DNA of 64,000 nt from Candidatus Pacearchaeota archaeon (GTDB taxonomy: Archaea > Nanobdellota > Nanobdellia > Pacearchaeales > GW2011-AR1), in the NCBI GenBank assembly GCA_002688015.1, contig NZBT01000006.1, positions 915 to 64,914 of the forward strand, read 5' to 3'. Both the position numbers and the translations under genes were made by a program. Numbering within the stretch: the first letter of the stretch is position 1; every line of letters begins with the position of its first letter. Shown one piece after another: positions 11,656 to 64,000 of this stretch. Below the pieces are notes generated by a model. That model made no database searches, was not told where the DNA came from, and saw only the letters and a list, made by a program, of their open reading frames with translations.

Positions 11656-11709
11656 TTGGGTATTTGGTTCAGCAGAGAGTTTTAAATACCCTTCCTTTTA
11701 TTTTAAATA

Positions 11710-12786
11710 ATGTTAACAAAAAAGCAGATTGAGGAGGTAAGAGAGCATTTGGAAAGGGCTCAGAATCCTGTTTTTTATTATGATAATGATTCTGACGGTC
11801 TTTGTAGTTTTGTTTTGTTTAGGAGAAAGTTCGATAAGGGAAAGGGAGTTGCTGTTAGAAGTTTTCCAGATTTAGATGTAAGATATGCGAAAAAAGCACA
11901 GGAATTAAATGCAGATTATGTTTTTATTTTGGATAAGCCAGATGTTTCAGAAGAATTTTTAGAGGAAATTAAAAATTTAGGATTACCTGTTGTTTGGATC
12001 GATCATCATGATATTCCTGGATTGAATGTGGAAAAAATGGAAAAGAAGTTTGATAATTTATATGTTTATAATTGGGCAAGAAATAAAGGGAAGGATAAAA
12101 GTGAAGAGCCAGTTACTTATTGGGCTTATAAGATTACTGAGAGAAAGGAAGATTTGTGGCTTGCGGTTTGTGGGTGTATAGCAGATAGTTATTTGCCTGA
12201 TTTTTCTTTGGAGTTTAAAGAGAAGTGGCCTGATTATTGGAGTCCAGCTGTAAAGACTGCTTTTGATGCTTATTTTGGAACGGAGATAGGGAAGATAGCG
12301 GAAGGTTTGAATTTTGGATTGAAAGATAGTACAAGTAATATTGTGAAGTTACAGAATTTTTTAGTTTCTGCTAAGGGGCCTGAAGAAATTTTTGAAGAGT
12401 CAAGTAAAAATTATGAGTTTAGAAAAAAATATAAAGAAATTAAGAAGAAATATGATGTTTTAATTGAGAAAGCTAAAGAGAAAGCGGAGGAGAAAATAAT
12501 TTTCTTTGAGTATTCTGGAGAGTTGAGTATAAGTTCTGAGGTTAGTAATAGAATTTTTTATTTTTATCCTGATAAGTATACTGTTATCGCGTTTAAGAAA
12601 GGAGGAATCAGTAATCTTTCTTTGAGAGGAGAAGATGTTAGAGGAATTTTAGAGAAAGTTTTGAATTCAGGGGAATTTGAAGGAGCTACAGGAGGGGGGC
12701 ATGAGAAAGCTGTTGGAGCGAGAATTAAAACGGAAGATTTAAAGAAGTTTAAGGAAATGATTGAGAAGGAGATAGAGAGAAAATAG
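11710..12786 (+). CDS. DHH/DHHA1 phosphoesterase (RecJ/NrnA-like), paralog 1
   Basis: Motifs YYDNDSDGLCS, VVWIDHHD (DHH) and C-terminal GGGHEKAVGA (DHHA1 GGGH). Confidence 0.8.
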   Translation: MLTKKQIEEVREHLERAQNPVFYYDNDSDGLCSFVLFRRKFDKGKGVAVRSFPDLDVRYAKKAQELNADYVFILDKPDVSEEFLEEIKNLGLPVVWIDHHDIPGLNVEKMEKKFDNLYVYNWARNKGKDKSEEPVTYWAYKITERKEDLWLAVCGCIADSYLPDFSLEFKEKWPDYWSPAVKTAFDAYFGTEIGKIAEGLNFGLKDSTSNIVKLQNFLVSAKGPEEIFEESSKNYEFRKKYKEIKKKYDVLIEKAKEKAEEKIIFFEYSGELSISSEVSNRIFYFYPDKYTVIAFKKGGISNLSLRGEDVRGILEKVLNSGEFEGATGGGHEKAVGARIKTEDLKKFKEMIEKEIERK

Positions 12787-12789
12787 AAA

Positions 12790-12852
12790 ATGAAGCAGAC
12801 AGGAAATCCGCTAATTTTCCATTTTCGGAAATGGAAGGAAAATAGAAAATGA
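12790..12852 (+). promoter_or_regulatory. Conserved leader element copy 2: 20-codon upstream ORF (MKQTGNPLIFHFRKWKENRK) with ATGA overlap to the 12849 start
   Basis: ATG at 12790, four nt after the DHH gene stop. TGA at 12850-12852 overlaps the ATG at 12849-12851. Core AAGCAGACAGGAAATCCGCTAATTTTCCATTTTC matches copy 1. Confidence 0.5.
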
Positions 12853-13877
12853 AAGAAATTAAGATTGAAGTTTATGGAAGAGTGCAGGGAGTCAGATTTA
12901 GAAATGTAATAAAAGGAATTGCTGACTCATTAGATGTTAAAGGATATGTTAGGAATAGAGAGATTGGAGGTGTTGTGATAGTTGCTCAAGGGAGCGAGGG
13001 AAAGTTAAAGAGTTTTTTAGAAGAAATTAATAGAAGTCCTGGGCTTTCTAAAGTTGAGCAAGTTGAGTGGAAATGGCATGAGCAAAGTATAGAATATAAA
13101 GAGTTTAGTATAGAGAAAGATAAAGGTTTTATCGAAGATCAGATTAAGAGCTTTAAGAATTTGGGGAAGACTTTGATTGGGAGGAATTTTGGAATAGTGC
13201 CAGAGCATGTCGTTATTATTCCAGATGGAAATAGGAGATGGGCTAAGGAAAAAGGATTAAGTGGGAGTGAAGGACATATTAAGGCTGCTGCTTTTGAGAA
13301 TTTGATAAGTTTGTTTGATGAGAGCATGAATATGGGAATAAAATATGCTTCTTTGTGGGCTTTTTCTACTGAGAATTGGAAAAGAAATGAAAGAGAAAAG
13401 AAAGTTCTTTTTTCTTTGTTGAGAGGTTTAGTCGATCAGTTAGGAGAATATTTGGAGAAGAATGAAGTTAGGTTTAGACATATTGGAAGGAAAGATAGGC
13501 TTCCTAAAAATTTGATTGAAGATTTACAAAATTTAGAGAAAAAAACTGAAAAGCACAATAACTTCAATGTTTCTTTGCTTTTGGACTATGGGGGGAGAGA
13601 TGAGATTGTTAGAGTGGTTAATAAATTATTAAAACAAGGAAAGAATGAAATAACTGAAGAAGAGATTTGTAAACATTTAGATACATTTGATATTCCTGAT
13701 CCTGATTTGATTATTAGAACTTCAGGGGAGCAGAGAACATCAGGATTACTACCTTGGCAGTCTACATATTCTGAACTTTATTTTGCTGATGTTTATTTTC
13801 CTGATTTTGATGTTAAGGAATTTAAGAAATCAATTGAGGAATTTTCAAAAAGAAAGAGAACTTTTGGCGGGAATTGA
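12849..13877 (+). CDS. uppS: Acylphosphatase domain fused to cis-prenyltransferase (undecaprenyl/dehydrodolichyl diphosphate synthase)
   Basis: The N-terminal ~90 aa carry both acylphosphatase signatures (VYGRVQGVRFR; GYVRNREIGGVVIVAQG). The remainder carries UppS motifs HVVIIPDGNRRWA, FSTENWKR and IRTSGEQRTSGLLPWQSTYSELYF. Confidence 0.9.
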   Translation: MKEIKIEVYGRVQGVRFRNVIKGIADSLDVKGYVRNREIGGVVIVAQGSEGKLKSFLEEINRSPGLSKVEQVEWKWHEQSIEYKEFSIEKDKGFIEDQIKSFKNLGKTLIGRNFGIVPEHVVIIPDGNRRWAKEKGLSGSEGHIKAAAFENLISLFDESMNMGIKYASLWAFSTENWKRNEREKKVLFSLLRGLVDQLGEYLEKNEVRFRHIGRKDRLPKNLIEDLQNLEKKTEKHNNFNVSLLLDYGGRDEIVRVVNKLLKQGKNEITEEEICKHLDTFDIPDPDLIIRTSGEQRTSGLLPWQSTYSELYFADVYFPDFDVKEFKKSIEEFSKRKRTFGGN

Positions 13878-27176: not shown

Positions 27177-27205
27177 ATGAATTCTTTCTGTTTTTAATAT
27201 GGCAA

Positions 27206-27502
27206 GTGATAAAGAGATTAGGAAAATCTCTAATAAACCATTTTCAAGAAAAGGAAGAAAAAATGGTTGATAAAGATACAGAGAAGGTTAGAGAGGAAGC
27301 AAGAGCTTTACTTGAAAATTTTGCGAAAAAGCTTGAGAAAGTTGATTTAGGGAAAGAGAAGGAAGAGAAAGATATGAAAGAATCTGGTTTTCGTGAAGAG
27401 GGAGAAGGAAAGGAAGCAAACGAAGATTTTAAAAAGAGATTTCTAGATAATGCTCCTAATGTTAAAGGGGGAAAGATTGTAGCTGAGAAGAAGAGTTGGT
27501 AA
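27206..27502 (+). CDS. gatC: GatC-like amidotransferase subunit (start uncertain)
   Basis: C-terminal GFREEGEG...FLDNAPNVKGGKIVAEK resembles the GatC pattern R-E-D-E...NAP...G-x-(F/I)-x-V-P. Candidate starts are GTG 27206 (98 aa) or ATG 27263 (79 aa). A 23-codon ORF from ATG 27199 in another frame ends 5 nt after ATG 27263. Confidence 0.5.
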   Translation: MIKRLGKSLINHFQEKEEKMVDKDTEKVREEARALLENFAKKLEKVDLGKEKEEKDMKESGFREEGEGKEANEDFKKRFLDNAPNVKGGKIVAEKKSW

Positions 27503-38060: not shown

Positions 38061-38213
38061 ATGGCAAAGAAAAAAGCAAAGAAAGCAACAAAGAAAAAAG
38101 CAACCAAGAAGAAAGCAGTGAAGAAGAAAGCAGTGAAGAAGAAAGCAGTGAAGAAAAAGGCTGCAAAAAAGAAAGCACCAAAGAAAAAGGCTGCAAAAAA
38201 GAAGAGAAGATAA
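38061..38213 (+). CDS. 50-aa Lys/Ala-repeat highly basic protein (histone H1 tail-like / nucleic-acid-binding candidate)
   Basis: ATG at 38061 preceded by AGGTGA (38044-38049). Translation: MAKKKAKKATKKKATKKKAVKKKAVKKKAVKKKAAKKKAPKKKAAKKKRR*. TATA AGTTTATAAA at 38001-38010. The track ORFs 37976..38239(+) and 37993..38223(-) are alternative frames of the same repeat. Confidence 0.6.
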   Translation: MAKKKAKKATKKKATKKKAVKKKAVKKKAVKKKAAKKKAPKKKAAKKKRR

Positions 38214-63986: not shown

Positions 63987-64000
63987 GTATCTGTCTTGAA

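Follow-up and report, generated by a model that had tools for sequence, protein, structure and literature searches.

A dispersed family of approximately 59-nt hairpin units at gene starts in DPANN archaea, probably copies of a small insertion element

The window analyzed in this work is a stretch of 64,000 nt from Candidatus Pacearchaeota archaeon (assembly GCA_002688015.1, contig NZBT01000006.1, positions 915 to 64,914 of the forward strand), which has a GC content of 35% and carries the genes for TBP, MCM, eRF1, aIF2-beta, L15e, and other housekeeping genes. Our subject is a short unit that stands at the start of some of these genes and duplicates the context of their start codon. A first-pass annotation, made from the letters alone, had described two such leaders, each bounded by direct repeats with a period of 59 nt, and both repeats were found exactly where it had placed them, i.e., GAAAATAGAAAATGAA at 12779-12794 and 12838-12853 and AAAATGAAAATAA at 1173-1185 and 1232-1244. 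No further occurrence of either string exists in the window, even if 1 mismatch is tolerated, and the two loci have in common a 75-nt repeat with 79% identity (1173-1247 versus 12781-12855). Chance is excluded by shuffles; in particular, a 24-nt core pattern has 2 matches in the window versus 0.00 expected.

In the following, X_L and X_R are the left and right direct repeats, X'inv is the arm complementary to X_L, and the + strand is the sense strand, in the orientation of the downstream gene. The duplicated ATG in X_L is the upstream ATG (uATG), the frame that it opens is the upstream open reading frame (uORF), and the real start in X_R is the main ATG. Loci outside the window are referred to by handles (L001 and so forth). 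The copies of the window and a fourth one in the same genome are composed as follows.

12779-12794, + strand: X_L of copy 2, GAAAATAGAAAATGAA, exact 16-nt repeat with period 59, containing the DHH stop TAG (12784-12786) and the duplicated ATG (12790-12792)
12794-12812: hairpin of copy 2, with stem AGCAGAC (12794-12800), loop AGGAA (12801-12805), and stem ATCCGCT (12806-12812)
12814-12826, + strand: arm X'inv of copy 2, ATTTTCCATTTTC
12827-12837, + strand: return arm of copy 2, GGAAATGGAAG, pairing with 12817-12824
12838-12853, + strand: X_R of copy 2, with the main ATG (12849-12851) of the acylphosphatase-UPPS gene (12849-13877)
12790-12852, + strand: uORF of copy 2, 20 codons, MKQTGNPLIFHFRKWKENRK, with TGA overlapping the main ATG (ATGA)
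1173-1185, + strand: X_L of copy 1, AAAATGAAAATAA, with the duplicated ATG at 1176
1186-1204: hairpin of copy 1, AGCAGAC-AAGAA-GTCCGCT
1206-1218, + strand: arm X'inv of copy 1, ATTATTCATTTTC, followed by linker and return arm at 1219-1231
1232-1244, + strand: X_R of copy 1, with the main ATG (1235) of a gene for a 1527-aa LamG-domain protein
1176-1238, + strand: uORF of copy 1, MKIKQTRSPLIIHFQKRNKK, with ATGA overlap
27199-27276, + strand: copy 3, of a diverged subfamily, with X_L ATGGCAAGTGATAAAGA
27213-27231: hairpin of copy 3, AGAGATT-AGGAA-AATCTCT
27233-27245, + strand: arm of copy 3, ATAAACCATTTTC
X_R of copy 3, + strand: ATGGTTGATAAAGA, with the main ATG at 27263; the uORF spans 27199-27270
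L011 2500-2604, - strand: fourth copy, about 950 nt past window position 64000, at the start of a Cdc48-like gene (MAGKNSGVQLKVVEA...)

The repeat of copy 1 extends to 19 nt if 1 mismatch is allowed (1167-1185 and 1226-1244), and the X_L of copy 2 resembles the 3' part of the family consensus, GGGAGAAAATAGAAAATGA. The arm of copy 2 is the reverse complement of the X_L positions GAAAATAGAAAAT but for one A.C mismatch, which is a G.U pair on the - strand. The segments on which the first-pass annotation had built its pairings, CATTTTC at 12820-12826 and TCATTTTCA at 1211-1219, read as it gave them, and so does the second hairpin of copy 2, TTCCATTT-TCGG-AAATGGAA at 12817-12836, with two flanking G-U pairs. 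The small GCAGA-N7-TCCGC hairpin that it had noted in both leaders is present as well, but contains an A.C mismatch on the + strand and should be read as a stem of 7 bp closing a loop of 5 nt, whose pairing is complete only on the - strand, where the mismatches turn into G.U pairs and the hairpin of copy 2 reads AGCGGAU-UUCCU-GUCUGCU. Copy 3, which was not among the copies first described, precedes a 79-aa gene without a Pfam match; its stem is altered on both sides compared to those of copies 1 and 2, with the loop and the 3' AAT retained, and it scores 50.4 bits (E = 2e-8) with a covariance model for which it was itself a training sequence. The fourth copy, with X = AATGGCAGGAAAAAATA, is assigned to the same genome through L011 3496-6073, which matches window 64000-61423 with 100% identity.

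The 59-nt unit is a member of a dispersed family, not a locus-specific leader. In total, about 20 copies from about 7 genomes or populations were collected, of which 17 were used for stem covariation, 18 for the mean fold z-scores and the covariance model, and 20 for the uORF frames. Besides the three window copies (stems at 1186, 12794, and 27213), most lie in Woesearchaeota-like contigs. Scans of GTDB genomes and metagenome contigs with the core pattern AAGCAGACA(R)GAA(R)TCCGCTAAT returned 3 copies in the Woesearchaeota metagenome-assembled genome CAZWLX01 and about 10 loci in groundwater and other metagenome contigs; three matches (L004-L006) were due to chance, and all the remaining ones were true copies. 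Diverged members were recognized by a scan for ATG-containing direct repeats (L008c and L010c), by a scan for hairpins with an ARGAA loop (window 27213 and L002b), by orthology (L020), and by a protein search with the uORF peptide (L021 and L022). The covariance model detected no more copies in the window and the loci, with members scoring at least 37.8 bits and the next match 23 bits, and the candidate copies at window 8549 and L025 7774 were discarded on inspection. Element density is about 1 per 15-20 kb in the sampled regions. No copies were found in IMG/VR viral contigs, INPHARED phages, or PLSDB plasmids, and no equivalent of the element was found described in the literature searched. 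At Rfam gathering thresholds only 5 tRNAs pass, and at E <= 10 both loci return only chance miRNA/small-RNA matches far under the cutoffs.

All of the about 20 copies are oriented with the downstream gene, and the ATG of that gene lies inside X every time. The host genes are mutually unrelated and encode ribosomal proteins L6, L30, and L44e, an S3Ae-like protein, a Cdc48-like protein, SIMPL and MBL-fold proteins, acylphosphatase-UPPS, and membrane proteins. The order of the parts is X_L (7-26 nt, with the ATG), an A, the 7-bp stem with its ARGAA loop, another A, the X'inv of about 13 nt, a 3-5-nt loop with the return arm, and X_R, which itself sometimes takes the role of the return arm. By pairing leftwards, X'inv gives a helix of about 20 bp with the conserved stem-loop at its tip, and by pairing rightwards it forms the second hairpin, an equivalent of which exists in all copies; the mutually exclusive pairings proposed for the two leaders are therefore a family-wide property, with the arm engaging either X_L or the return arm/X_R. 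In 13 of the 17 copies the X_L:X'inv duplex stops 2 nt before the stem and resumes 1 nt after it. Four unlike stems (AGCAGAC, TGAAATC, AAAAATC, and AGAGATT/AAAGATT) are combined with one loop and one 3' AAT, and over the central 23-32 nt there is no difference between unrelated loci and between different genomes. Whole units also form tandem arrays, one of 2.4 units of 59 nt in L012 (3078-3219) and one of 65-nt units, at least 2 in number, where L010 (1-140) and L013 (4405-4527) break apart, and contig L016 opens inside a copy (1-17).

The stem covaries across the 17 copies, with changes on both sides at 5 to 7 of the 7 pairs; none of 500 shuffles was as good, and slid registers were far worse. 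The pairing of the stem is complete on the - strand (100% of 119 cells) versus 79.8% on the + strand. When the helix is extended to 20 bp to include the locus-specific X, 85% of the positions are paired compared to 45-51% with slid partners, and 18 of the 20 pairs vary on both sides. The comparison of the folds with dinucleotide shuffles, suggested at the outset as a control, favors one strand only: the - strand of copy 2 folds at -21.9 kcal/mol (z = -7.3) and that of copy 1 at -17.1 kcal/mol (z = -5.1), versus z = -1.44 and z = -2.46, respectively, on the + strand, and the family means are -3.8 and -1.5. Furthermore, wobble pairs in the best local duplexes are counted at 11:2 in favor of the - strand. 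In most sense-strand minimum-energy folds the uATG is paired and the main ATG free; the main ATG is paired in the sense-strand fold for window 27213 and L020, and the alternative pairing is possible in all copies.

Comparison with relatives shows that the unit is an insertion, since the orthologous sites are empty. L001 is syntenic with window 8.3-17.8 kb, and its copy on the SIMPL start duplicates ATGGAAAATAAA (MENK, the first four codons), while window 10927 is the corresponding empty site, with a single ATGGATAATAAG (MDNK). L002, with a copy on the MBL start, is syntenic with window 29.3-31.0 kb, where 30684 is the empty site; TTTAAAT is followed by the first ATG after 29 nt in both, and L002 then has 62 extra nt before conserved coding resumes. 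At the DHH/acylphosphatase-UPPS junction, occupied by copy 2 in the window, the element is absent from L017, L025, and L026/27, in which the two genes overlap by 1-4 nt, and L028 has a 47-nt overlap at the same junction according to its annotation; the acylphosphatase-UPPS orthologues begin with MKEI(K/Q)IEVYG right after DHH, as in L025, where MKEIQIEVYG follows the DHH stop. This very junction is occupied independently in L020, by a copy from another subfamily. In 46 kb from more distant relatives the element was not found. The alternative left by the first-pass annotation, that of an insertion with duplication of the start context and no terminal inverted repeats, is thus the one sustained, with the same core at about 20 unrelated gene starts. 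Moreover, element identity between genomes is 86-91% and that of their orthologous genes 65-76%, which indicates recent spread, and in several contigs the element is the sole blastn match to the window.

The exact repeat measures 14.7 +/- 5.6 nt (7-26), and the period 59.7 +/- 2.3 nt (55-65). Random re-pairing of the lengths gives a period with an SD of 8.6, and none of 10,000 permutations was as low as observed; the period is constant at varying repeat length, and the added unit therefore has a constant length. The element always has A-AGCAGAC at its 5' end; the 3' end that precedes X_R differs from copy to copy, and in none is it the reverse complement of this 5' end. In L001, L002a, L003, L011, L012, and L013a, X consists of native gene sequence.

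The layout of a uORF followed by the main ATG is likewise real. The uORF has 16-23 codons (45 in L021/L022) and is open as far as the main ATG in all 20 copies, compared to 12 of 40 control frames reaching equally far (Fisher p = 1e-7). Its stop lies at -9 to +14 nt from the main ATG in 19 of the 20, and in L003 (2220-2330, protein P0121), with its period of 60 nt, the duplicated ATG shares the frame of the gene, to which the uORF is fused. The period is 2 mod 3 in 14 of the 20 copies, an exact ATGA overlap occurs in 11 of the 20, and none of the 20 has its uATG in the frame that ends at the TAA of the element itself (18 copies, plus L021 and L022, both with d = 4). Two frames are in use, giving KQTGNPLI in about 10 copies and KADRKSANF/IRKI in about 8, and thus the uORF peptide itself is not conserved. 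The open frame, with its stop at or beside the main ATG, suggests translational coupling between the two. The nested 75-nt insert of L021 and L022 keeps the frame and the ATGA overlap and adds no stop. This insert, with two hairpins (GCTAAGATTG...CAATCTT...TAGAAGTCT...AGACTTCTAAG), lies within the second hairpin of the element (L021 1040-1114 and L022 810-884; also L023 and L024) and, occurring at two different genes, may be a second small mobile element.

A unit that is inserted, dispersed in many copies, built around a covarying hairpin, and crossed by an open uORF is what these comparisons establish, and we consider it probable that each leader is a copy of a small non-autonomous insertion element of a Woesearchaeota-like DPANN lineage, by which a unit of about 59 nt is added a few nucleotides 3' of the start codon. 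Several observations weigh against this reading. Repeat length and non-repeated length are correlated at -0.94, unlike a classical target-site duplication, and no terminal inverted repeats were found in the copies. In the subfamily of window 12794, L007, L008a, and L010b, X looks element-borne, like the 3' consensus, and in window copy 2 the last DHH codons and the TAG stop lie within this consensus-like X. The signals from the arm are mixed: it is adapted to a unique sequence of the locus in L003, L011, and L013a, the arm of L003 being a patchwork of consensus-like and target-like bases, and it has an inherited look in L009 and L012, whose arms are the same and mismatch their different targets at one and the same position. 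The strand asymmetry amounts to about 5 independent stem events, and the fixed-register count for the outer helix is 20 versus 14 (p = 0.39); replication template switching alone can create stems and asymmetric pair frequencies with no need of selection (PMC8794818). The 59 window ORFs of at least 100 aa are housekeeping genes or lack a Pfam match, with no transposase, reverse transcriptase, integrase, or Cas1 among them, no Y1/HUH transposase or repetitive extragenic palindrome (REP)-associated tyrosine transposase (RAYT) was seen in the 64 kb plus flanks, and every core match was a small unit, none belonging to a larger, autonomous relative. With no mobilizing enzyme or autonomous relative found, the argument for mobility is one of presence/absence and identity, and no more than about 7 genomes or populations are represented.

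If each leader is such an inserted copy, the gene would survive because its start region is regenerated downstream of the insertion. Ribosomes would start from the first ATG, where the native promoter, leader, or coupling to the upstream gene is retained, read the 16-23 codons of the uORF across the element, stop on or next to the main ATG, and re-initiate there. Insertions elsewhere in these compact genomes would be lost, as the 59-nt unit shifts the reading frame, and this would explain why only copies at start sites are seen. The strand relevant to mobility or maintenance would be the antisense one, as single-stranded DNA or RNA, and the arm could act as a splint or guide, positioning the left junction 1-2 nt from the foot of the hairpin by its pairing with the template strand at the start region. 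Choice of the target by arm complementarity alone was discarded, as dozens of window sites match with at most 2 mismatches, mostly neither gene starts nor occupied; since unoccupied near-matches are so many, selection against insertions in coding regions is also needed, and the loss of frame-shifting insertions in genes is the simplest additional factor for the restriction to start sites. Candidate mechanisms are a circle or concatemer of about 59 nt integrating at homologous X, the copying, through microhomology, of exactly one period out of a donor copy, the guide-and-splint arrangement, and later rewriting of the arm by replication template switching, a process that replaces sequence without a change in length and can create or extend stems (PMC8794818, PMC8604942). 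It is possible to hypothesize, more speculatively and with the odds rather against it, a self-retargeting mini-element that homes on start codons and is programmed by base pairing: an antisense unit of about 59 nt would be guided by its 13-nt arm to the template strand of start sites, make one exact junction, and install a uORF-coupled leader, after which the arm would be rewritten at each locus, maybe through a circular or concatemeric intermediate, and the element would perhaps have been recruited as a portable cassette for translational control in DPANN archaea.

The first-pass annotation had favored a switch in the sense mRNA that sequesters the start codon, which can be generalized to a portable riboregulator whose arm alternates between the decoy start in X_L and the return arm or real start in X_R and so gates translation, the ARGAA hairpin serving as a sensor or protein site. 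The alternative arm pairings of every copy agree with it, as do the (nearly) invariant loop ARGAA with its flanking A/AAT on a covarying stem, as for a recognition site, the pairing of the arm with the real start in the sense folds of window 27213 and L020, and the presence of L6, L30, L44e, S3Ae-like, and Cdc48-like genes among the hosts; it is also compatible with a mobile origin. However, the sense folds barely beat the shuffles, A.C mismatches are conserved in the sense stem, the main ATG is unpaired in most sense folds, the host genes are functionally unrelated, orthologous leaders do without the element, and Rfam has no match, so that the switch as proposed is not supported and we regard a sense-strand regulatory leader as unlikely. 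The complete pairing of the - strand, with z down to -7.3, and its conserved pyrimidine loop would instead fit a family of antisense small-RNA genes, in which the hairpin with its UUCYU loop, similar to an anti-Shine-Dalgarno sequence, is the product and acts in cis on the start or in trans on purine-rich ribosome binding sites. We give this still less credit, because the copies share no promoter-like - strand sequence upstream (by reading, not by an archaeal promoter scan), because the direct repeats, the constant period, and the open + strand uORF are left unexplained, and because Rfam again has no match.

An origin in place is a further alternative to the insertion element that we prefer. 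Replication slippage or template switching at start regions could produce tandem duplications of about 59 nt together with inverted copies, and the hairpin that the copies share would then have arisen by convergence or been distributed only through ectopic gene conversion. In favor of this, the period does not vary with the length of the repeat, arrays exist in L012 (2.4 units) and L010/L013, L001 has a 58-nt tandem repeat, unrelated to the element, at the start of another gene, and stems are known to arise and grow by template switching (PMC8794818, PMC8604942). Nevertheless, an identical centre of 23-32 nt at unrelated loci and genomes is impossible by local slippage and needs import, i.e., mobility, and the same composite unit, including the nested insert, at two different genes in L021/L022 suggests transfer of whole units. 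An origin without mobility therefore appears very improbable, and template switching may still be the source of the locus-specific arm after arrival. That the 20-codon ORF encodes a conserved micropeptide (MKQTGNPLI...) is the least credible of these readings. An ATG-started ORF is present in all copies, and several changes in L008b are synonymous in that frame; on the other hand, two frames are used across the copies, all of the about 10 differences between the window copies are non-synonymous (by reading), stem covariation alters the peptide freely, and the search with the peptide profile recovered only element-derived ORFs, namely, the in-frame fusion of L003 and three short ORFs.

A number of narrower identifications were tried and set aside. 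On reading the sequence, the RUGAUGA/CUGA boxes of a C/D-box small RNA were not found, the loop positions were unsuitable for the shape of a tRNA anticodon arm or T-arm, and the cores of hammerhead and other small ribozymes and the K-turn did not fit. A bulge-helix-bulge intron, which needs two 3-nt bulges on either side of a 4-bp helix at its boundaries, is at odds with the single 2x1 internal loop between the conserved stem and X:X'inv, and identical boundary repeats cannot pair together. The operator of a dimeric transcription factor was rejected, since the half-sites covary to unrelated sequences around a spacer that is the conserved part. A CRISPR array, with its conserved repeats between unique spacers, does not fit either: the layout of the element is the reverse, with locus-specific repeats around a conserved centre, the L012 arrays are made of identical whole units, and the match to CRISPR-DR47 reaches 15 bits versus a 39-bit cutoff. 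The integron attC site (the "59-base element") was rejected, as the 75-nt unit contains no GTT and hence no RYYYAAC...GTTRRRY, and its copies stand 5' of housekeeping genes whose synteny is conserved. A casposon-like duplication of 14-15 bp is excluded by the architecture and the variable repeat length, and programmed translational bypass by the frame that is open from the uATG to the main ATG in all copies, with no stop after a take-off codon. The idea that X_L begins at the transcription start fits L002 and some other copies by TATA spacing and fails for L001. A host-wide ruler of about 59 nt was also dismissed, as 188 kb gave only one unrelated 58-nt tandem repeat, in L001. The latter (1814-1971, 2.7 units, between SIMPL and DHH) has a TATA-like TTTAAATA in each unit, so that the promoter region is triplicated, and its window orthologue (11656-11709) has one copy; its period resembles that of the element.

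Other observations concern the window and the host genes. The gene at 12849-13877 encodes an acylphosphatase domain fused to a cis-prenyltransferase (UPPS), and the best 120 listed homologues all have both Pfam domains; the few that are named come from DPANN-type archaea (Nanoarchaeota and Pacearchaeota), and the gene usually follows a DHH/DHHA1 gene, with stop and start overlapping. Two tandem repeats in the window are unrelated to the element, one of 30 nt x 4.2 at 38079-38203 (AAGAAAGCAGCAAAG..., Lys/Ala rich if translated) and one of 27 nt x 2.7 at 822-894, inside the ORF 36-1082.

DPANN archaea have very small genomes and are considered poor in mobile DNA. Here the element sits on the starts of essential genes, such as those for ribosomal proteins, a Cdc48-like protein, and the synthase of the isoprenoid carrier lipid, and it would illustrate how an insertion can settle in a gene where it is most sensitive and yet do no harm, by duplicating the start and handing the ribosomes on through a stop-start overlap. 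Practical consequences follow for annotation and assembly. Gene callers can choose the wrong ATG at a copy, as in L003, where the N-terminal extension of the public gene call (…MKQTGNPLICHFQGINRKGQ-MWETL…) is an artefact caused by the element, and assemblies break at copies, as at the start of L016 and at the array where L010 and L013 are split.

Compared with known systems, the element would be a small insertion element that fails the definitions of both MITEs (miniature inverted-repeat transposable elements) and IS200/IS605 derivatives and has mechanistic oddities of its own. Like MITEs, it is short, multi-copy, dispersed, and structured, with direct target repeats, filled and empty sites between relatives, and no coding capacity; different from MITEs, it has neither terminal inverted repeats nor a fixed short target duplication (7-26-nt repeat and a unit of about 59 nt), and it occurs only on start codons, only in the orientation of the gene, and with an arm complementary to its own flank. 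The lack of terminal inverted repeats and the strand-specific imperfect hairpin with G.T/G.U-type pairs recall the palindrome-associated transposable elements (PATEs) derived from IS200/IS605 and the REP/RAYT systems. In IS608, a short guide beside the foot of the hairpin pairs with the flanking target and helps to define the junction, and the arm of the element is alike. However, IS200/IS605 elements insert 3' of a 4-5-nt target without duplication and have 4-nt guides and two different ends, whereas here the repeats measure 7-26 nt and the arm about 13 nt. We know of no transposition scheme that fits the combination of constant unit length, flank-complementary arm, absence of terminal inverted repeats, and antisense bias, and behind it may stand a novel mode of integration or template switching used in an unusual way.

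An insertion site beside a stretch complementary to an internal segment, with the pairing fixing the orientation, is also known from the EBS-IBS (exon-binding and intron-binding site) interaction of group II introns and from the bridge RNA of IS110, but the element is 10-50 times smaller, lacks a ribozyme, a large scaffold, or an ORF, and makes a direct repeat. The tandem repeats of Borgs are archaeal and A-rich, with perfect units, flanking partial repeats, and a central part of unexplained origin, and some lie near gene starts (PMC9879509). The element is likewise archaeal, A-rich, and flanked by partial repeats, with occasional arrays (L012 and L010/L013); nevertheless, Borg repeats are unique to their locus and amplified in place, whereas the hairpin of the element recurs across loci and genomes, usually in about 1.25 units. 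With ATGA stop-start coupling and termination-reinitiation, it shares the uORF stop that overlaps or abuts the main ATG (save in L003), but its uORF was created by an insertion that duplicates the start and did not evolve as an operon junction. Finally, Rickettsia palindromic elements, the mitochondrial translational-bypass inserts (byps), and the gap of T4 gene 60 resemble it as small inserts that form hairpins within a coding sequence or at its edge and do not abolish gene function, and in the matching sequence around a gap of about 50 nt; however, the Rickettsia elements are translated in frame into a part of the protein and bypass depends on a stop or stall where the ribosome takes off, while the ORF of the element described here reads through and ends at the real start.

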